From an uncultured Pseudomonadales bacterium (GTDB lineage: Bacteria; Patescibacteriota; Microgenomatia; UBA1400; PJMF01): 63,473 nt of DNA. Shown here one piece after another: positions 35,012 through 44,923 of this stretch. The notes under the pieces were generated by a model. It was not told where the DNA came from and did no database searches. It saw nothing but the letters and a program-made list of their open reading frames with translations. Each line of letters opens with the position of its first letter. Within the stretch, counting starts at the first letter, position 1. Location: NCBI GenBank assembly GCA_964400865.1, contig CAYNWG010000002.1:1-63473 (forward strand). Reading direction: 5' to 3'. A program made the position numbers and the translations under genes.

Positions 35012-35968
35012 ATGAACTGTATGAAAAACATACTTGTGGTTAACCAGTTAAAAAAGATCTACCCACCTGCAACAAAGCGTGATAGTGAGTTCTGTGCTTT
35101 GGACGGCATTAGTTTCACAGTAAAAAAAGGTGAAATTGTTGGTTTGCTTGGTCCCAATGGGGCTGGCAAATCAACCACTATCCAAATGCTCATTGATACG
35201 CTCAAACCAACCTCTGGCACCATTGAATATTTTGGTAAAGATCTACACCAAAATCGCAGTGAGGTTTTGCAGCACGTAACATTTGCCAGTACCTATATAA
35301 AAATGCCCTGGCGTTTGACGGTACTCGAAAATCTGTGGATTTATGCGTTATTGTACGGCTTGAATAGAGAGCAATTTAATCAACGGGTAGAAAACTTTTT
35401 AAAATTTTTTGGCGTGTGGGATCAACGAAACAAAACGATTGGTATGCTTTCTGCTGGTCAAATTACTCGGATAATGCTGGCAAAGGCATTTATTCCACAT
35501 CCGAAGATAGTGCTACTGGATGAACCAACAGCTTCATTAGATCCAGACATGGCTCATCAGGTTCGTGATTTTGTGAAGCGTCAACAAAAAGAATATGACA
35601 TGAGCATTATCTATACCTCGCACAATATGGACGAGGTCGCTGCTGTTTGCGATAGGGTTATCTTTTTGAATCATGGCAAAATTGTGGCGTTAGATACACC
35701 GGACAATTTGGCAAAATCAGTATCGCTGGCTCGGGTGCGCTTATGGGTCAAAGATGGCTTGAAGCGAACTGAGCGATTTGCCAATGAGCAAGGTTTAGTT
35801 AGTCATATTGAAGATAGAGAAATTGTGATTGAGATCGATGAACCAGCAATTGCTGGGTTTCTCGCCTCACTCGCCGACGCTCAAATTGAGTATTCGCAAA
35901 TTAGTATTGATAAACCAACGTTGGAAGATTATTTCCTGAGTATGAGCAAACAAGAACAAACCAAATGA
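35012..35968 (+). CDS. ABC transporter ATP-binding protein (ABC-2 type exporter)
   Basis: GPNGAGKST, LSAGQITR, VLLDEPTASLD, TSH. The start may be the ATG at 35021. Confidence 0.88.
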   Translation: MNCMKNILVVNQLKKIYPPATKRDSEFCALDGISFTVKKGEIVGLLGPNGAGKSTTIQMLIDTLKPTSGTIEYFGKDLHQNRSEVLQHVTFASTYIKMPWRLTVLENLWIYALLYGLNREQFNQRVENFLKFFGVWDQRNKTIGMLSAGQITRIMLAKAFIPHPKIVLLDEPTASLDPDMAHQVRDFVKRQQKEYDMSIIYTSHNMDEVAAVCDRVIFLNHGKIVALDTPDNLAKSVSLARVRLWVKDGLKRTERFANEQGLVSHIEDREIVIEIDEPAIAGFLASLADAQIEYSQISIDKPTLEDYFLSMSKQEQTK

Positions 35969-36753
35969 ACATAGCAAAACACAGATTACAAGCATTGTTT
36001 ACCAGACACCTGTATCCACTGAAGCGAGATTTTGATTTGCTTTCAGATATGATCTATTGGCCACTTATCGACACAGTTTTGTGGGGCGTGACTGGTATGT
36101 GGTTGACCGAAACAAGTGGGGTGCCTGAGTTAGTAGTGGCGCTTTTGATGGGCCTCATTATTTGGAATATTATTTGGCGGTCACAATCTGAGGTTGGTCG
36201 CAATATGATGGATGAAATTTGGAATTCCAACTTGGTGAATCTCTTTTCTACGCCGGTCTCAATATTAGAGTGGCTAATTTCTGTAATTGGTTTGTCTTTT
36301 GTCAAAACTCTCGTCACTTTACTCGTGATTATTCCCGTGATGGTCTTCTTGTATTCCATTAACGTACTGACGCTGGGTCTGTGGTTGCCAGTATTTTTTG
36401 TGTTGGCGAGCATGACTGGGTGGTCGGTTGGTTTATTAGCTTCGGGCATTGTGCTCCGCTGGGGACCCAGAGTACAAACGGTGATTTGGACGTTACCGGG
36501 GATTTTGTTACCGTTTAGTGCGATCTATTTTCCTGCCGCGCGCCTACCTGGATTATTGCAGACGATTTCATGGTTTGTGCCCACTACCTACGTGATGGAA
36601 ACGTTGCGCGCGGTCGTCTTCGGCGGTACTCCAGATATCATGATGTTGGTAAAAAGTCTTGCGTTGAATATGTTCTACTTAGCGTTAGCTTCAATTTTCT
36701 TTTTGCGTAGCTTTGAGTACAGCAAAAACATGGGACTTAATCGATTTACCTAA
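35965..36753 (+). CDS. ABC-2 type transporter permease
   Basis: 4-nt overlap with the ATPase gene. Six hydrophobic segments. Confidence 0.75.
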   Translation: MNIAKHRLQALFTRHLYPLKRDFDLLSDMIYWPLIDTVLWGVTGMWLTETSGVPELVVALLMGLIIWNIIWRSQSEVGRNMMDEIWNSNLVNLFSTPVSILEWLISVIGLSFVKTLVTLLVIIPVMVFLYSINVLTLGLWLPVFFVLASMTGWSVGLLASGIVLRWGPRVQTVIWTLPGILLPFSAIYFPAARLPGLLQTISWFVPTTYVMETLRAVVFGGTPDIMMLVKSLALNMFYLALASIFFLRSFEYSKNMGLNRFT

Positions 36754-37875: not shown

Positions 37876-38901
37876 GTGACTGAAGTTATACTAGCAGTAG
37901 AAAAGCATGAGTTGATTTCATTACCAGAAATTGTGATTCCAGAAACAGTTCGTTCTCAGTTTGGCGAGGGAATAAAGAAAATAATCCCGTTGTTTATGAG
38001 CTGGGATGAAGTTGGTGAGTGTTGGATTGATGTAGATAGCAAACCCAATTTGGTTATTACATTGGCACGAGCGGGATCACTGTCATGGGTTCCAATTAAG
38101 GCTATAACCGATTTGTACGAAATTACTATTCCTAGAATAGTTGATGTGCACTTGGGCAGAGAACTTGCGTATCGTTTTGCAAGAGAAAGACAGATTGATT
38201 TCAGATTATTTCAAAGTGGTGATCAGGAAACTATGTTAGATTTTGAATCTTGGTTAGAACTAGAGTTCTCTCAGAATCCCGATTTAAGGTTGCAGCTATC
38301 TGAGCTAGTCGCTTGCTTTGCAGGTGTTGGAGATTCTGAGGAGAAAGTGGTCGTGCTAGACGACGTTGTTCAGGATGGATTAACGATGGGCGTGGTTGTA
38401 CCAACGATACTAAAAATCATTTTGAATTCAAAAGTTGTTTTTGAGTCATCGAATGAGAAAATTAGGGATCAGCTAAAACCAAGTGAAGAATCAATAATTG
38501 CGAGTCAATCAACCAGAGTGTTGTTAGAAAATATTCTTGAAGATACTGAATGGCTATATGAAATCATTGATGCATCTTTTTCAAACTATTTAGATTCACT
38601 ATTTCAACAGAAGAAGATTGTTACAAGGCAGTTTCTTGTTCAACTTGCAAAAGGATCAATTGAAGATATGCAAACTGGCACATTAGCTCCAATAGAGTCT
38701 GAAGCTCAGATCAGGAATGTTGGACAAAACATTCAGCAACAGTACTTCGTAAATAATCCTCCAAGACATGAATCTTTGTTTATAGACCCAGGTAATCCCG
38801 CAGTGGAAGCAATTAAGGTATTTGGTGTACATGCATTGTTAGCAATACAAGTTAAAGTTAGAACAGAATTGGAAAGGTTGGGCCAGACCGCAGAACTATG
38901 A
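37876..38901 (+). CDS. Hypothetical cytoplasmic protein with a PRPP-binding-like motif
   Basis: KVVVLDDVVQDGLTMGVV resembles the type I phosphoribosyltransferase loop (hhhhDDhxxTGxT). Nothing else recognised. Confidence 0.45.
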   Translation: MTEVILAVEKHELISLPEIVIPETVRSQFGEGIKKIIPLFMSWDEVGECWIDVDSKPNLVITLARAGSLSWVPIKAITDLYEITIPRIVDVHLGRELAYRFARERQIDFRLFQSGDQETMLDFESWLELEFSQNPDLRLQLSELVACFAGVGDSEEKVVVLDDVVQDGLTMGVVVPTILKIILNSKVVFESSNEKIRDQLKPSEESIIASQSTRVLLENILEDTEWLYEIIDASFSNYLDSLFQQKKIVTRQFLVQLAKGSIEDMQTGTLAPIESEAQIRNVGQNIQQQYFVNNPPRHESLFIDPGNPAVEAIKVFGVHALLAIQVKVRTELERLGQTAEL

Positions 38902-38918
38902 AGAACTACGGTCTGGCC
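38881..38918. terminator. GC-rich hairpin between convergent genes (10-bp stem, 18-nt loop), no U-tract
   Basis: ggccagaccg ... cggtctggcc. Overlaps the last codons of the plus-strand gene. Confidence 0.45.
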
Positions 38919-38924
38919 AGAGAA

Positions 38925-40820
38925 TTACTCAGGCTTATTTTCGACTGGGGAATGAGGTATCCCAAGGTAGTCCAAAACCTCATCTAGTACTACAAGAATA
39001 AGATTTCGTTCCATGGGGTCACAGGGCTCCCAATGGGAGGCTGTGACCGATCTCCAGTCGTTGTTAAATTCTTCCAGATCATCCTGTGGGATATTGCCCC
39101 GCAAAAAGGTCCGGTCATTAACATCGAGATTATGTAAAAACGTGATAACCCCCGTGGCAGTTTGGTAGACCAGGGCCCTTGCGGAGCCCCAGCGACCGGC
39201 CTCAGGACGTTTCTTCCAGCATTGGATCGGGTTGGTCATCCCGATCGCCGCGATCTGAGCTGCATCCGCACGGCGCATTTCTGGACGACCAATTCCCGAA
39301 TTGGTATCGTCCAGGTGCCCGTTACCCCGTGCGATGGTGTAGTCGTGTAGGTATTCTGGAGGCATTGACTGGGGAAAGACTACACCCTGTTCCCAGTTGG
39401 GAATGAGTACAAAGCCTCTGGATGCCAGCGAAGACTGAGGTCGCTCTACCCAAATTGCTTCAACAGCGTCCTCATGAATAGTCCCACCGTTCCATGGCAG
39501 GATGAAGTAACGCCCCGCCAGGCTGAAACTCGACATCTTGGTTGTTGTGGTTTGGTTGTATCTGCCAAGCGCCAGGTTCATAGGATGAACCTGGCTCGAG
39601 ACGACAACCGGGGTGTTTGGGGGAATATTTCGTAACCCCAACCACCCGATAACCGTAACTCCAACCAAAGGAATGGTTTTTCTGACGATCCGCGCCACCT
39701 GCGCACCGTTGCGCGCCAGTCTTCCCACCACGACCGCGTCTCCAAAGGGTAGCGGTCCGTCCAGCGCTACTAGCGCTAGATTGGAGAGAAGAAAGATCGA
39801 CCTAGGTTGGTCGAAGATGGCGGTGAGGCCATTTTCTTCAAACCAAGCTTGATCTGGATCTGATGGCAGACACACCGGGTCCCCGATGTTGATGAAACCA
39901 TTCAGGGCACTATTGCCCGTTATCAAAATGGTTTCAGGGATATTAGTTCTCCCTGCCAACTGGGGGAAGGTCTCAACAATTGTGCTCCAGTAGCCCCACC
40001 ACCCTGGGTGGCAGACTACTGGATTCTGTTTTGAGATCAGCGGGAGGTAGGTTTTACACCCACCCGGAGGGCAGGGACGTGGAGTTGGCACTGGTGTCGG
40101 TGTCGCGTTTGCTTCATAACACTGAAAGATGCGAAATGCATCCCAGCCAATGCGGACACCCGGATTGATCAGATGCAACATGACCCCCTCTATTTCAAGA
40201 CTGTTCGACTCTACTTGGTGGTAGGTTGGAGTCACTGCGTGATGCTCACTCAGTTGCCACCAACCCAACCCAGTTGGGCGGTTGTTAACGATGGTTTCAA
40301 CCCCAAAAGTCGTACCAGCCACTGGCCCGTCGAGGCTAAACCTCCACCACGATAAAGTTGGGGTAGTTATGGGCGTGCCGTAGCCACTGGGGATGAGGAG
40401 TCGAATTGACGCCCCATTTCTGTCCCAGTCCGCATACGCTTTTCCCCCAGTAGGGGCACTGGCCCAAGAGATTTGATCCCAACTTTGTAGCTCGCCTGAG
40501 AAGTGGTTGTCCCAGGTGAACGTGTAACAGTTATCTGTTCCGATTGCCTGGGCTTCCAGAATGAAAGTATTGCTTGGAATGCTTTTTTCCAATAGTTGCG
40601 GCGCATCCTGATTGACTGCACCTCCGCTAATAGAACCAGAAGGGAAATCCATGAAAACTCCAAATGGCATTTCCTTCTGATGGCTCGTAAGAGCCCCTGA
40701 GTTAAACTCAGTAGTTCCTGCTTCTTGTGCCAGAGCAGGACCCGCCACTGGCAAGCCAATGACGACGACAACCACAAGGAGGATGATCGCAATCATCCCC
40801 GACCAGAAATCTTTAGACAT
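38925..40820 (-). CDS. High-GC secreted protein of unknown function (probable horizontal acquisition), LysM-like segment in the middle
   Basis: Signal/TM at the N-terminus, canonical SD (aaggagag) 5 nt upstream of the ATG, PTPVPTPRPCPPGG linker, KTYLPLI motif, WSTIVETFPQLAGRTNIPETILITGNSALNGFINIGDPVCLP (LysM-like). Local G+C is far above the flanks. Confidence 0.7.
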   Translation of the reverse strand: MSKDFWSGMIAIILLVVVVVIGLPVAGPALAQEAGTTEFNSGALTSHQKEMPFGVFMDFPSGSISGGAVNQDAPQLLEKSIPSNTFILEAQAIGTDNCYTFTWDNHFSGELQSWDQISWASAPTGGKAYADWDRNGASIRLLIPSGYGTPITTPTLSWWRFSLDGPVAGTTFGVETIVNNRPTGLGWWQLSEHHAVTPTYHQVESNSLEIEGVMLHLINPGVRIGWDAFRIFQCYEANATPTPVPTPRPCPPGGCKTYLPLISKQNPVVCHPGWWGYWSTIVETFPQLAGRTNIPETILITGNSALNGFINIGDPVCLPSDPDQAWFEENGLTAIFDQPRSIFLLSNLALVALDGPLPFGDAVVVGRLARNGAQVARIVRKTIPLVGVTVIGWLGLRNIPPNTPVVVSSQVHPMNLALGRYNQTTTTKMSSFSLAGRYFILPWNGGTIHEDAVEAIWVERPQSSLASRGFVLIPNWEQGVVFPQSMPPEYLHDYTIARGNGHLDDTNSGIGRPEMRRADAAQIAAIGMTNPIQCWKKRPEAGRWGSARALVYQTATGVITFLHNLDVNDRTFLRGNIPQDDLEEFNNDWRSVTASHWEPCDPMERNLILVVLDEVLDYLGIPHSPVENKPE

Positions 40821-40880
40821 CTTATCTCTCCTTGAACCGAAGATAAACCCACCAAAGGTTTGGTGAGTTACAACCAGAAA

Positions 40881-40930
40881 CTGGCTGCGCAGTGTTTACA
40901 AAAAACTACCAATAAACACAGCGCAGCCAG
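40881..40930. promoter_or_regulatory. 18-bp imperfect inverted repeat upstream of the high-GC gene
   Basis: ctggctgcgcagtgttta ... taaacacagcgcagccag. 17/18 positions pair; the loop is 14 nt. Confidence 0.4.
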
Positions 40931-41106
40931 TTAGCTGCCAACGGAGTAGAACAAGATCAAAATATAAAAAATTAAAATAAGCCTGAAATGTTAAAGAGCA
41001 TCGAGAGGGCATTAGTAAGGTCGCAATGACCGTCAGTACTTCACGATACACATCTATTATATATCATATGTGTAAAAATTACTATAAGATAAACCTATAA
41101 CAAAAT

Positions 41107-41829
41107 ATGTTTAATTTACATGGTACGATAAGAACAATGAAAAAAATCTTGATTATTACACTACTAATGGTTTTTTTACCACTAACCGTATTTGCGGGTG
41201 GCGGGCGTATTCTTATTTATACGAGTGATAATTTTAATGGTTATTACTATGTAAATTCAGATACGTATGTTTTGGCTCAAGTGTTTGTTCCGGATTCTAG
41301 CAATACTGTTAGCTCGGTCGGAGAACGAGCAGAGTTCAGAATTGAAAATCCACGAGAGGGTGACTCATGTGTTAATGAAATCGAGCAAACTACAGAGCTT
41401 GGGTTGCTAAGAGCTCGCTGTAAGGCCACTCAACCAGGAACTATTACTGTGTATGTCTATTCATTTGCAGACAATTATGAATCCTCTCGTTATCAACTTC
41501 ATTTTTATGCAATGCCAAACCCAACAGATGATTCCACACAGCCACCAGTTGCGAGTCCTACGCTTGTGAGGTCAACGCCCACTCCAACTCATGCGTTAAA
41601 CAAGACAATCACAAAAATTCCATTGGAATTGTCTCCAACGCCAGCAAGCATTTCAGAACTTAACGCTGTATCAGTCTTATCAGAAGAGGAGTTAGATACT
41701 AAACTTGAAAGTGAGTTCACTCAGAATTCTGAAAGTATGGCAATTGTTTTATCCCTCGCACTTATAATGTTTGGCATTAGCATTGCAGGAGTTGGTTTCC
41801 TTATTTTCATGTCATCAAAGAAAACCTAA
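41107..41829 (+). CDS. Secreted protein with C-terminal TM anchor, unknown function
   Basis: Signal peptide (likely start MKKILIITLL at 41137), PT-rich linker, C-terminal hydrophobic anchor. Confidence 0.5.
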   Translation: MFNLHGTIRTMKKILIITLLMVFLPLTVFAGGGRILIYTSDNFNGYYYVNSDTYVLAQVFVPDSSNTVSSVGERAEFRIENPREGDSCVNEIEQTTELGLLRARCKATQPGTITVYVYSFADNYESSRYQLHFYAMPNPTDDSTQPPVASPTLVRSTPTPTHALNKTITKIPLELSPTPASISELNAVSVLSEEELDTKLESEFTQNSESMAIVLSLALIMFGISIAGVGFLIFMSSKKT

Positions 41830-42669
41830 ATGGACCTCATTTTTCTATTACTTCTATTTGCTGGTTTATTGAGTGGAGTGATTCAAGTTCTTAACAAAAA
41901 ATTAGCTGGATCAAACCATCGATCTTCAACTCATGCGGCAGTCATTGCGCTCACAAACGGAGTAGTTGGGTTGCCACTTCTGTTATACCAATTTCAATTA
42001 CCACAATCCTTTGGAACCTGGATCCTTATTGTTTTCTCAATCAGTACCTATGCGATAAGCTTATCATTGTATTTCTTAGCCTATAAACTCTCCGATGTAT
42101 CTTTGGTTAGCGTTGTGCGTAGGTTGAGCATCGTATGTATTGCGATTTTGGGAGTGGTTTTCTTGCGTGAACAATTAACTATTGTGAATTGGTTTGGCTT
42201 AATCATGATTGTACTGAGTGGGATAGTGGTAACAATCGAGCGAAAACAAATGAAGCTTAGTTCTGGACTTTTGTTTGCGCTGTTTTCAGCAGTCTTTGCC
42301 TCGATATCCGCAGTTTTAGATAAACAAATCCTAAATGATATCTCTCCATTCACATACGTTGTAGTAAACAATCTATTTGTTGGTTTGATACTGTTGCCAA
42401 GAAAAGGATCGATTGCAGATGCCCGCGATTTGATGAAGCATCATTGGCGATTAATACTCTTAACAGCAATCTTGATGGATTTGGGGTTTGCTCTAGTGTT
42501 GTATGTATTGCAAGGTACAGATGTTGCTCAAACGATGCCGGTGTATATGGGTTTATCGTTCATGATGCCAGTGGTGTTTGGTGTAGTCATACTGAAAGAA
42601 AAACAAAAATTACGACAAAAAATAGTTGCCATTGCGTTTGGTTTGCTGGGAATATTTTTGTTGCAGTAG
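41830..42669 (+). CDS. EamA/DMT-family transporter
   Basis: About 10 TM segments in two repeats. Abuts the preceding stop codon. Confidence 0.8.
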   Translation: MDLIFLLLLFAGLLSGVIQVLNKKLAGSNHRSSTHAAVIALTNGVVGLPLLLYQFQLPQSFGTWILIVFSISTYAISLSLYFLAYKLSDVSLVSVVRRLSIVCIAILGVVFLREQLTIVNWFGLIMIVLSGIVVTIERKQMKLSSGLLFALFSAVFASISAVLDKQILNDISPFTYVVVNNLFVGLILLPRKGSIADARDLMKHHWRLILLTAILMDLGFALVLYVLQGTDVAQTMPVYMGLSFMMPVVFGVVILKEKQKLRQKIVAIAFGLLGIFLLQ

Positions 42670-42816
42670 TCTACAAATAAGCAAACGATGTCTCTTGATT
42701 TTACCCAAGGGTTTAGTTTGTGTATACTACTTCTAATTCCAGATGAGTGTATTAGATTACTTGTTTGCACAAGAAACTGTAATAACATAAGACGATTGAA
42801 ATAAGAACACGAAGTT

Positions 42817-43605
42817 ATGCAAGAAATTAGTCGCTCACAGACCAAATTGTACGAAGCAGGAGAGTCACTTCCAGAATATATTGATAGAATTTTCACTGAA
42901 AAAAGAAGACAGACAATTATTGATAGTTGCCCAGCTAGTTTACGAAGAAGTGATGGACAGCCTGCATTACTCTACCGTCATGTTAGTGAGCAAGAGCTTA
43001 TTGAATTATTGATGAAGGGGAAGAAAGATGGTTACTCAGGAATATTAGAAGGTTTGAGCTTAACTAATTTTTATGTTCAATTTAATCTAAGAAGTGAAGA
43101 CCCTAATCTACTAGAGCACATTGCTGCCTTAGGATTTACTGATCCTGAAAAAGTGCTTCAGTCAGTAACTGAGGGTGATGTTGAAGCATTCAAAAATGCA
43201 TGCAAAGATTTGCCTGCTCGGTATAAAGTAAGGATGGTGGTAAGAGGGGTTTTGACCACTTCTTTCTTTGGGTACATTCCAACTTCATTAATCCCTTTTG
43301 GTGCGACTCAAAGATACTATCTCGAACTTATGATACCTCCAGAGAAGTGGCATTTAGACGATTTAGATGAAATTCAAAGTGAGGAGGTGGTGAACGACAG
43401 AGAAATGCAGGTTTTAGTTGAGAGCATAGCGGAAAGCGACATTACTATGATCTATAAGCCTGGCGAAATGGCGGATGACAAAAGTAAATATATCAATAAG
43501 CAGTTTAATCTACCGCCAGATGCAAAAGGAATGAGATTTTCGATGTTACTAGATCCACTAAGAAGCGGAAATAAAAAAAAGTTCTTACCCCAATACTTTT
43601 ACTAG
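42817..43605 (+). CDS. Hypothetical protein (low G+C)
   Basis: ORF only. LLYRH ... LTTSF ... DREMQVLV spacing is weakly reminiscent of R-S-E ADP-ribosyltransferases. This is speculative. Confidence 0.5.
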   Translation: MQEISRSQTKLYEAGESLPEYIDRIFTEKRRQTIIDSCPASLRRSDGQPALLYRHVSEQELIELLMKGKKDGYSGILEGLSLTNFYVQFNLRSEDPNLLEHIAALGFTDPEKVLQSVTEGDVEAFKNACKDLPARYKVRMVVRGVLTTSFFGYIPTSLIPFGATQRYYLELMIPPEKWHLDDLDEIQSEEVVNDREMQVLVESIAESDITMIYKPGEMADDKSKYINKQFNLPPDAKGMRFSMLLDPLRSGNKKKFLPQYFY

Positions 43606-43668
43606 GTATCAACTGTAGAAAAAAATGTAACGCTGAATAGCTATTTTAGCAACTGAACAAAGTGCATA

Positions 43669-44451
43669 ATGGATGAACTAAGAAGCTCACAAACAGAAAC
43701 AGCATTAAGCAGTCGGTTTCACAAATATGGAATTGAGATTCTTGAAAATGGATCCATCAATGGTCCCAAAAGACCTCCTTTGAATGGATCTACTCCCAAT
43801 CTAACATTTGAAAATAGCAAAGAAATTGTTCTCGAATTAGATAAAGATTTTTTGTATGAATATTTCTTGCGCCCTTTTTCAGCAGCCGAACATCAAACAG
43901 CAGTATTAGAAGTAGTTGATAAAGTATTCCGAGAAATAACGGGCAAATCATTTAAAGATTTTTCGAATATTATTATAATGTCAAAAGATGATTTTATAGA
44001 CTTTAAAAACTTAGCCGCACCTGGACTAAAACAACAAAGAGGAATACAAGGCGATTTTCATGGAATAAGTCTAGGAGGTTTAATAATACTACAAGATACT
44101 GGAGGAAGTAATTGCTTTCCTCTGCTATTTCATGAATTAGGTCATAATTTATATCTTGATGAAAATAATAACTATATAGACGAATTTAGAGCATTCTATT
44201 TTCAAATCTTATGTACAAAAAAATTAGAACGAGAATTAAAAAAAATCGGCATAGAAGCAACCTACCCTGATGATTACTACGAAGGTCTTCCATTACCTAC
44301 CGAGGATCATAGAAAAGCTTTTATGGGCGCTAGGGCTTTATTTCTTTTCCAAACAGAATACGAAATGGTTGTAAAAGATAGCCCAAACGCTGAAGTAAGG
44401 ATGGATGAGTTATTAGGAATTGTGAAACAAGCGAGAAAAGTATTTAATTAA
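43669..44451 (+). CDS. Putative HExxH metallopeptidase-like protein
   Basis: FPLLFHELGHNLY contains HExxH with a downstream Glu (IDEF). No signal peptide. Confidence 0.5.
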   Translation: MDELRSSQTETALSSRFHKYGIEILENGSINGPKRPPLNGSTPNLTFENSKEIVLELDKDFLYEYFLRPFSAAEHQTAVLEVVDKVFREITGKSFKDFSNIIIMSKDDFIDFKNLAAPGLKQQRGIQGDFHGISLGGLIILQDTGGSNCFPLLFHELGHNLYLDENNNYIDEFRAFYFQILCTKKLERELKKIGIEATYPDDYYEGLPLPTEDHRKAFMGARALFLFQTEYEMVVKDSPNAEVRMDELLGIVKQARKVFN

Positions 44452-44501
44452 TATGTATCCCAATTAACATCGCTTTTAAGAGGGGAGCAGGATTCTTTTT
44501 G

Positions 44502-44923
44502 TGGAGATGACGAGGGATGACCTCGTGTCCGTGTCCAGCTAAAAAACAGCATCTACAGGTTTAGTTTCTCTTTAAGTGTGGAGCGCTTCGGTGAAGAAAC
44601 AAACCGTCAAGCGATCCCTTTGTACTATGGCTTACGACTACTCGGTACAAGCAAGTAATCAGTCACACTGGCTGAGTTTTCACCCACTCGCTCACACCAG
44701 TGAGATGAAACGAGTGAATGCCACTTATGCGTAAAGCATTTGTGGAGATCGGAAAGTGTCACCAAAATTGGCAACAGCAGTTCTTACTTGCGTAAGAATG
44801 CTTTTTCCACGACCGTTACTGGAGACAATGCCTTCAGTTATAGTTTTGGTCCTGTTAACGTCTTTTGACCAAAGACGACCTGCGACTGTTAAAGAGCGTG
44901 TCACGTCAAAGCAACACATCCCC
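44502..44923 (-). ncRNA. ssrA: tmRNA (transfer-messenger RNA), CCA not encoded
   Basis: On the minus strand, 5' GGGGATG pairs with 3' CATCTCC-A, giving a G3:U wobble (the Ala identity element). 5' GCUUUGACGUGA resembles GAUUCGACGGGA. The 3' end GGAC-ACGAG-GUCAUCC-CUCGU-CAUCUCC-A is collinear with the E. coli GGAC-GCGGG-UUCAACU-CCCGC-CAGCUCC-A. Candidate tag frame: GCC AAU ... CUU UAC GCA UAA = ANFGDTFRSPQMLYA. Confidence 0.8.

Follow-up and report, generated by a model that had tools for sequence, protein, structure and literature searches.

The window analysed here is the whole 63,473-nt stretch of contig CAYNWG010000002.1, part of a metagenome-assembled genome (MAG) from the candidate phyla radiation (CPR) group Woesebacteria (1.17 Mb in 95 contigs, estimated contamination 6.35%). 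This genome is referred to as G000 and a congener as G001, with L-numbers denoting loci and P-numbers proteins. The feature under study is a coding sequence at positions 38925..40820 on the minus strand, which has a high G+C content (GC) and encodes an exported orphan protein of 631 aa (P0001). The assignment is based on the open reading frame (ORF), on purifying selection and on orthologues with 48-87% identity, and the gene is considered real because the ratio of non-synonymous to synonymous divergence (dN/dS) of its C-terminal domain against those orthologues is ~0.06. Directly 5' of the gene lies a conserved structured leader (40821..41065, minus strand), and beyond its 3' end a convergent gene (37876..38901, plus strand) encodes a cytoplasmic partner protein of 341 aa (P0008). 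The original prediction, made from the sequence alone, had interpreted the coding sequence as a probable recent horizontal acquisition of a secreted protein. The target gene is old, syntenic and long-resident, not a recent import, and its leader, exported protein and convergent partner constitute a very rare, previously undescribed, CPR-specific three-part module.

The compositional observations behind that prediction were reproduced. The hand counts of G+C per 60-nt line (38, 34, 23 and 13) are exact, with an average of 31.8 per line within the gene versus 24.7 (sd 4.4) outside it, and the segment C2:39001-40500 ranks top in GC among 2111 sliding 1.5-kb windows across the whole assembly (z ~+4.6). 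The flanks are low, and beyond either gene end GC falls to 0.29-0.37 within ~150 nt. The gene as a whole has a GC of 0.526 and a GC at third codon positions (GC3) of 0.546, compared with genome-wide values of 0.410 for GC and 0.356 (sd 0.055) for mean GC3, corresponding to a GC3 z-score of +3.5 against host genes. A pile-up of spurious reading frames was likewise present, with 10 extra ORFs of at least 50 aa overlapping the gene on both strands, one of them reaching 80 aa. The strong Shine-Dalgarno (SD) sequence AAGGAGAG is located at 40826..40833 (minus strand), 5 nt 5' of the ATG, and a strong SD is kept in 6/6 leaders. Together with sigma-70-like boxes, it precedes a gene in an otherwise SD-poor genome, in which, based on crude start calls, an SD core of 4 nt precedes 17% and one of 6 nt precedes 4.7% of 595 long ORFs starting with ATG. 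The encoded protein is also atypical in its amino acid usage, being rich in P, G and R, with 3.5% W (1.4% genome-wide) and 1.7% K (5.6% genome-wide). Elsewhere in the assembly, a handful of further genes with GC3 of 0.53-0.64 occur at C3:43211-44188, C58:2772-3887, C40:385-5059, C29:6-761 and C41:3270-4514. Two of them encode SPFH/Band-7 proteins, others form a cluster coding for membrane proteins, lipoproteins and orphans, and a reverse transcriptase gene is also among them.

Three features would fit a recent acquisition or a chimeric assembly with foreign DNA: the composition changes sharply and exactly at the gene borders, no other window of the genome is as rich in GC, and contamination of the MAG is estimated at 6.35%. 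Both junctions of the target, together with its neighbours, are carried by at least five independent assemblies from different studies, and mis-assembly is excluded because the junctions in these assemblies are identical. The gene is situated 38 kb into the 63-kb contig between flanks typical of the genome. Syntenic orthologues with an equal GC excess were found at L001, L002-L006, L007, L011/L021 and L029, and a common gene order is apparent across the Woesebacteria relatives: RNase J, FtsK, DUF4349, ATP-binding cassette (ABC) ATPase, ABC permease, in some cases a 340-aa gene, the 341-aa partner gene, the target, a 240-aa gene and ssrA. Synonymous divergence (dS) of the target is 1-2 against L002 and saturated against L007, two loci at which the flanking core genes have 97% and ~80% protein identity to G000, respectively. 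Recent acquisition is thus refuted by a condition that the original prediction had itself named, as relatives carry an orthologue of the same composition at the same locus, and either form of this explanation is regarded as extremely improbable. Among the usual signs of a foreign gene, atypical composition and codon usage are evident here; absence from relatives, atypical neighbours, mobility genes and att repeats are not.

The family to which the target belongs is extremely sparse. Related protein clusters number ~7 among 15 billion proteins, with only three relatives of P0001 in a database of 5.8 billion clusters, and an exhaustive profile search with the conserved C-terminal 385 aa against 1.84 billion representatives recovered only three remote relatives, P0005-P0007. 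These have 35-39% identity and reside in distant CPR hosts, in which the arginyl-tRNA synthetase is 29% and the release factor 57% identical to those of G000; P0005 and P0006 match residues ~499-621 (module B, below) and P0007 matches residues 256-393 (module A and the adjoining ADGPLPxGD segment). A second, word-index search with alignment A3 returned no further family members, and a metagenome scan with the leader motif added one orthologous locus (L029) along with two chance matches. A search of 58 further genomes from the order did not find the target protein, and the congener G001 also lacks it. No non-CPR homologue was found, either in 15 billion proteins or in 185,579 species genomes, and a tblastn match in Massilia was discarded as spurious, lying outside any real ORF. 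Searches of IMG/VR by protein, partner or motif yielded nothing relevant, such that a phage origin is unsupported. In two low-GC IMG/VR phage contigs (L033 8812-8832 and L034 8388-8408) a stretch of 24 nt, GATTGCTCTTTAACAATTCAGGCT, matches the leader motif, probably by chance, and neither contig encodes a homologue of the target or of the partner.

The GC excess was separated into its amino acid and synonymous parts. Given genome codon usage, the protein sequence alone predicts a GC of 0.462 (z +2.1), and the synonymous part remains strongly shifted, with a GC3 of 0.546 versus 0.368 expected (z +3.7, rank 7/873 after removal of the amino-acid effect), so that ~5 points of the excess derive from a W/P/G/R-rich, K-poor protein and ~6.6 points from synonymous codons. 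The excess recurs across lineages, in which target GC is 0.48-0.57, that of the partners 0.37-0.38 and that of other neighbours 0.33-0.48. In all Woesebacteria relatives the target exceeds its neighbours by 10-16 GC points and by 0.13-0.25 in GC3, and although synonymous sites between G000 and L007 are saturated, target GC3 is still 0.55-0.62. Among the remote members, target and host GC are 0.552 versus 0.34-0.43 at L025 and 0.566 versus 0.44-0.48 at L024, and at L026 the target (0.484 versus 0.37-0.48) stands above all genes of its contig. Translational selection was rejected as the cause of the GC3 excess, given that highly expressed genes are low in GC3 (EF-Tu 0.32; ribosomal-protein genes 0.26-0.35; EF-Tu, GroEL and ribosomal-protein genes together 0.26-0.42) and that the target is enriched in GCG, GGG, CTG, CAG and TCG, all avoided by EF-Tu and GroEL.

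To place the target relative to its compositional equilibrium, synonymous third-position changes were polarised with outgroups by parsimony, with bootstrap confidence intervals (CIs). The implied equilibrium GC3 of the target C-terminal domain is 0.48-0.51 (CI 0.36-0.60) compared with 0.35 (CI 0.30-0.39) for four pooled neighbouring core genes, and per-site rates of change from strong (G or C) to weak (A or T) bases (S-to-W) and in the opposite direction (W-to-S) are approximately equal in the target C-terminal domain versus ~1.9:1 in the neighbours. As the implied equilibrium GC3 is ~0.5 and the partner, with the same history, is host-like in composition, the GC of the target appears to be maintained rather than a relic, and the results point to a gene-specific, maintained composition bias rather than unameliorated foreign DNA. 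Next to the block, the ABC-2 permease at 35965-36753 (plus strand) has a GC3 of 0.51 (0.49 at L002 and 0.60 at L007) with an implied equilibrium GC3 of 0.34, which is host-like.

The same data bear on the possibility that the gene was transferred long ago by a donor with GC-rich DNA and SD-led genes, for instance a member of Chloroflexi or Actinobacteria, in which case the GC excess would be a slowly decaying relic of incomplete amelioration. The shift of the codons towards G- and C-ending forms unlike those of the host's highly expressed genes, the K-poor and R/G/P/W-rich protein as seen in GC-rich organisms, the strong SD with sigma-70-like boxes in an SD-poor genome, and the position of the module in a variable slot beside ssrA would all fit such an origin, as would the slight numerical preponderance of S-to-W over W-to-S changes (40:34, 36:22 and 40:26). 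Once expressed per site, however, those two rates are about equal, as given above, and no non-CPR homologue was found in the searches already described. Furthermore, in none of the lineages does the GC of the co-inherited partner exceed that of the host (GC3 0.31 in the window and 0.22-0.31 across lineages), and the remote members, at 35-39% identity with partners at 20-27%, are still GC-rich. An ancient transfer is considered an unlikely source of the present composition, and maintained bias is the favoured interpretation.

The preferred cause of that bias is GC-biased gene conversion at a cassette-swapping locus, with selection on the mRNA as the alternative. Recombination at the target was inferred solely from mosaicism: the block is a mosaic in which the target and partner of G000 are nearest to those of L001 and the 240-aa gene is nearer to that of L021, one half of the gene has twice the dS of the other, and the N-terminal domain appears to have been swapped. 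Across bacteria, intragenic recombination has been reported to accompany higher gene GC (PMC4450053).

The original description of the product as a 631-aa signal-bearing protein with PTPVPTPRP and KTYLPLI motifs was accurate. Residues 1-31 (40728..40820, minus strand) read as a Sec-type signal peptide, with K3, a 19-residue hydrophobic core and an ALA|QE site at residue 31/32; the Kyte-Doolittle profile of residues 1-34 peaks at 3.04, and an equivalent N-terminus occurs in 7/7 family members, with a lipobox-like VAC in P0006. This is followed by a variable, beta-rich N-terminal domain (residues 32-240; 40101..40727, minus strand), apparently swapped as a cassette, which is 80% identical to that of P0002 (L001), 29-36% to those of P0003 and P0004 and 29% to that of L002. 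A Pro/Thr linker, PTPVPTPRP (residues 241-249; 40074..40100, minus strand), leads into the conserved C-terminal region (residues 247-631; 38928..40082, minus strand), in which KTYLPLI occupies residues 256-262 and which has six invariant Cys and 68-91% identity in alignment A2. At the nucleotide level, identity to L029 is 0.89 for the leader, which is the best-conserved DNA of the block in Woesebacteria, 0.80-0.91 for the ABC genes, 0.70-0.79 for the C-terminal domain and 0.46-0.56 for the N-terminal domain.

The conserved C-terminal region is arranged as module A (FLPL and CxxGWWGYW), a hydrophobic segment and module B. The hydrophobic segment (residues 342-396; 39633..39797, minus strand) contains a family-wide ADGPLPxGD turn and is kept in P0005-P0007; its Kyte-Doolittle values are 1.7-2.05 in the homologues and <1.6 in P0001, making membrane insertion uncertain. 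Module B (residues 490-631; 38928..39353, minus strand) has a predicted alpha-beta4-alpha-beta-alpha order based on alignment A4 and an AlphaFold2 model with a predicted local distance difference test score (pLDDT) of 73 and a predicted template modelling score (pTM) of 0.71. Its invariant residues in that alignment are GH, GR, R, CW and WxPC, and a disulfide between C534 and C600 is probable. The statement that the C-terminal part could not be assigned still holds, there being no sequence or fold match to anything known: the best Foldseek hits to the module B model were insignificant in both PDB (E 0.19, TM-score <0.3) and BFVD (E 0.011, TM-score 0.39), and profile searches of PDB with alignments A2 and A4 gave no meaningful match. 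Searches of Pfam, NCBIfam, PHROGs and PADLOC with the whole protein and four pieces identified no family, Pfam in particular returning nothing for whole P0001 at E<=1. A barnase/RNase Sa-like reading of ARALVY...FLHNLD was dropped on finding that His563 is replaced by Trp in P0005 and P0006, and a role as the target of a diversity-generating retroelement was rejected as nothing in the genome duplicates the gene, even in part, and the only reverse transcriptase found lies on contig C41. The protein may act at the cell envelope or host interface, in which case the N-terminal domain would recognise a target and the C-terminal region would carry the activity.

The convergent partner P0008 contains a stretch resembling a phosphoribosyl pyrophosphate (PRPP) loop, VVVLDDVVQDGLT, which fits the pattern of a PRPP-binding loop: four hydrophobic residues, a DD pair, a further two hydrophobic positions and a turn rich in G/T. 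Both aspartates, D162 and D163, are invariant across six members (alignment A5). It lacks transmembrane (TM) segments. Homologues of the partner are the genes directly downstream of the target, again convergent, at both L025 and L026 (E 1e-6 to 1e-16), such that P0005 and P0006 each have one, and the convergent neighbour of P0007 at L024 matches weakly (E 0.002). The partner family is as rare as the target family, with only seven proteins or clusters among 5.8e9 clusters compared with ~7 clusters for the target, and the two diverge in parallel (81/87%, 57/62% and 42/48-53%). The partner stretch aligns to the PRPP loop of ComF-type phosphoribosyltransferases (PRTases) with an hhalign E-value of 1.2e-4 and a probability of 54%, and to PRTases in PDB at E 0.5-1.9. 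No whole-domain PRTase match was obtained, the best Pfam hits being Pribosyltran (E 0.022) and PRTase-CE (E 0.025), each in one of six members and below the cut-off.

Such tight and conserved linkage with parallel divergence, together with a patchy distribution and a variable-island-like location, would also fit a toxin-immunity pair, according to which P0001 would be an exported antibacterial or host-directed toxin, having a hydrophobic hairpin that inserts into membranes and a catalytic module at its C-terminal end, and the partner would protect its producer. The invariant His/Arg/Arg/Glu in module B would fit as well, and convergent orientation is also that of the immunity genes belonging to pore-forming colicins. 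However, the polarity is reversed relative to polymorphic toxins, as it is the N-terminal domain that varies and the C-terminal region that is most conserved; the partner does not resemble known immunity proteins, having 341 aa, a cytoplasmic location, no TM segment and a PRPP-loop-like motif; Pfam, PADLOC and PHROGs gave no match to families of toxins or immunity proteins; and the idea of a barnase-like domain was given up as described above. For the cell-wall-targeting effector or toxin suggested in the original prediction, the searches gave no match in sequence or fold that would speak for or against it. A check for an adjacent immunity gene had been proposed in the original prediction, and it located a linked neighbour that does not have the classical immunity layout in its orientation, size or properties. 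A toxin-immunity pair is therefore an improbable interpretation of the locus, compared with which a partner acting as a cytoplasmic regulator or safeguard is preferred.

The leader reaches back from the start codon as far as a TATAAT-like -10 box (41056-41061) and has 76% column identity with L007 included. A fold obtained with RNAalifold and pair counting comprises three hairpins and a long-range helix, in which 93.8% of cells are paired versus 36-46% in slid controls and eight pairs change on both sides. Searches against Rfam 15 gave nothing at the gathering threshold, with only generic hairpin matches to miRNA models at E<=1. Within the leader, an invariant single-stranded motif of ~20 nt, GCTCTTTAACATTTCAGGCT (consensus TGCNCNTTAANANNTCAGG; 40980..40999, minus strand), is present in 6/6 leaders, those of the remote L025 and L026 among them. 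Genomes with the motif have a single copy of it, and it was found only in carriers of the gene pair (2/41 genomes). Hairpin 2 (40879..40932, minus strand), one of the two flanking hairpins noted originally, is an inverted repeat with 20-nt arms and 95% complementarity, and has three compensatory pairs in L007. Hairpin 3 (40846..40869, minus strand) lies just 5' of the SD and is drawn from the minimum-free-energy fold and compensatory changes at two pairs. An anti-SD strand (...CUCCGU...; 40941..40958, minus strand) is predicted to pair with the SD/AUG region, the last 146 nt of the leader folding at -63.6 kcal/mol (z -7.9) with this CUCC-containing upstream strand predicted to occlude both the SD and the AUG. 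A candidate leader peptide, MLFNISGLF, was rejected as not conserved, with no ATG at that position in L007 or L026, and hairpin 2 probably does not serve as an attenuator terminator, as the U-tract is poor and is missing from L007.

The other flanking hairpin, at 38881..38918, is common to both convergent genes and has 13-nt arms with 92% complementarity. It is kept in L007 with compensating changes in the inner stem, the last codons of the partner (LGQTAEL*) sit in its arm and loop, and it is probably a bidirectional terminator.

The module occupies a slot bordered on one side by the tmRNA gene ssrA (44499..44923, minus strand; Rfam RF00023, 82.5 bits). This tmRNA and those at three related loci are missed by ARAGORN, and the tmRNA of the lineage may be of an unusual form. 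At L001, L007 and L021 the 3' end of ssrA and the ABC permease directly flank the block, and G000 has an extra insert at 41830-44451 that comprises EamA and two orphan genes. In the congener G001, whose core genes are 88-90% identical to those of G000 and thus closer than those of L007, ~16 kb of unrelated genes with 30-36% GC lie between the same ABC permease and ssrA (L020, G001:C7:35800-51750), from which it follows that the slot holds alternative cargo. There do not appear to be any integrases, mobility genes, att duplications or flanking direct repeats around the module. A 17-nt imperfect direct repeat (82%) is present at 42710-42726, before the two-gene orphan/HExxH insertion, and at 44558-44574, within the 3' part of ssrA, and could be the remnant of an att duplication of the G000-specific insert. 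Divergent from the leader, the 240-aa gene (41107-41829, plus strand) is fast-evolving (54-66% identity) and occurs only in the Woesebacteria versions of the locus; its signal peptide, PT-rich stretch and C-terminal TM anchor suggest a surface protein.

The favoured explanation of these observations is that the target is a long-resident member of a very rare CPR module, which in Woesebacteria occupies a variable slot between the ABC transporter and ssrA. A ~240-nt leader with a private motif would gate, through a helix that occludes the strong SD, the translation of a Sec-exported protein with disulfides, whose N-terminal domain is exchangeable and whose C-terminal region of 385 aa is under strong constraint. 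The convergent partner, with which the target would have a terminator hairpin in common, may be its dedicated cytoplasmic regulator or safeguard, and GC3 would be kept near 0.5 by a W-to-S fixation bias, possibly arising from GC-biased gene conversion or mRNA selection. As a whole, this combination of an exported envelope or host-interface protein, leader-gated translation and a cytoplasmic regulator or safeguard in a long-resident CPR module is judged somewhat more probable than its negation. A more specific mechanism can be envisaged, in which the PRPP-loop partner would sense nucleotide or PRPP status, bind the leader motif in a PyrR-like manner and switch the SD-occluding helix, such that an exported host-interface or scavenging protein would be coupled to nucleotide economy, with its GC set by a W-to-S bias tied to swapping of the N-terminal cassette. 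The relation of partner to leader is based on the co-occurrence of the partner and the leader motif, and this fuller scheme is speculative and, as a whole, quite improbable.

Several observations weigh against the overall explanation. No known domain, fold or family matches the exported protein in any of the searches described, and full-length AlphaFold2 modelling from four sequences gave an unusable pLDDT of 31. The PRTase assignment of the partner is weak. The anti-SD helix (helix 4) is 96% paired, with one-sided changes only among the four distinct sequences aligned. The L026 homologue has a GC3 of 0.39, hardly above host level, and the equilibrium GC3 estimates derive from parsimony over few sites with distant outgroups, their CIs nearly touching those of the neighbours.

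The locus serves as a cautionary case for composition-based screens of gene transfer, in that a gene with a textbook foreign appearance is old and syntenic with its composition held. It also indicates that one gene can have a base-composition equilibrium different from that of the genes beside it (implied GC3 of ~0.5 versus 0.35), and this in nearly all of the distant hosts in which it occurs. Exported proteins of ultra-small, host-dependent bacteria are likely tools of symbiosis, almost none of which have a known function, and a compact module with a clear regulatory handle offers a tractable entry point. The rarity of the family limits its general importance.

Compared with known systems, the locus resembles tmRNA (ssrA)-adjacent islands in having an ssrA-bordered slot, content that varies between congeners and an atypical composition, and differs from them in that no integrase, att site or mobility gene was found at the module, a single gene is atypical, and that gene is old and syntenic. 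The LysM-like stretch named in the original prediction has, by eye, a beta-alpha-alpha-beta-like hydrophobic spacing and a GDxxxxP end over residues ~275-320 in common with LysM (PF01476), but the claim was not supported by hidden Markov model searches, as neither whole P0001 nor the isolated 89-aa piece (residues 247-335) matched LysM at E<=10, and the piece had no match to any Pfam family at that level. With pore-forming colicin and polymorphic toxin loci, the target has in common a modular exported protein, a hydrophobic hairpin-like segment and a linked, co-diverging neighbour, yet here it is the C-terminal end that is conserved and the N-terminal end that varies, the partner is no membrane protein, there is no similarity of sequence or fold, and no colicin Pfam match was obtained in P0001. 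Polymorphic toxins with their immunity genes would show a conserved N-terminal end, a variable C-terminal toxin and a small gene on the same strand, in contrast to the 29-36% identity of the N-terminal and 68-91% of the C-terminal part observed here and to a convergent gene of 341 aa.

The genome-wide trends associated with recombining, raised-GC3 genes are said to be far smaller than the target's excess of +0.18 in GC3 over expectation, which concerns one gene and persists in distant hosts. Such genes, whose raised GC3 has been attributed to GC-biased gene conversion (Lassalle et al. 2015, PMC4450053), resemble the target in that GC3 is raised regardless of codon optimality and in the accompanying signs of intragenic recombination and domain swapping. 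The regulatory side of the module is closest in its layout to systems governed by PRTase-fold proteins, of which PurR is one. PyrR is another; it has the PRTase fold and, in the Bacillus subtilis pyr leader, binds a motif that is conserved in the mRNA (PMC7430163). The present module differs from PyrR/pyr in its partner, which at 341 aa is without a significant PRTase match and is convergent, and in its target, which encodes an exported orphan rather than a nucleotide-synthesis enzyme; it has in common with PyrR/pyr a gene for a PRPP-loop-like protein placed beside a gene whose leader combines a conserved single-stranded motif with alternative helices.

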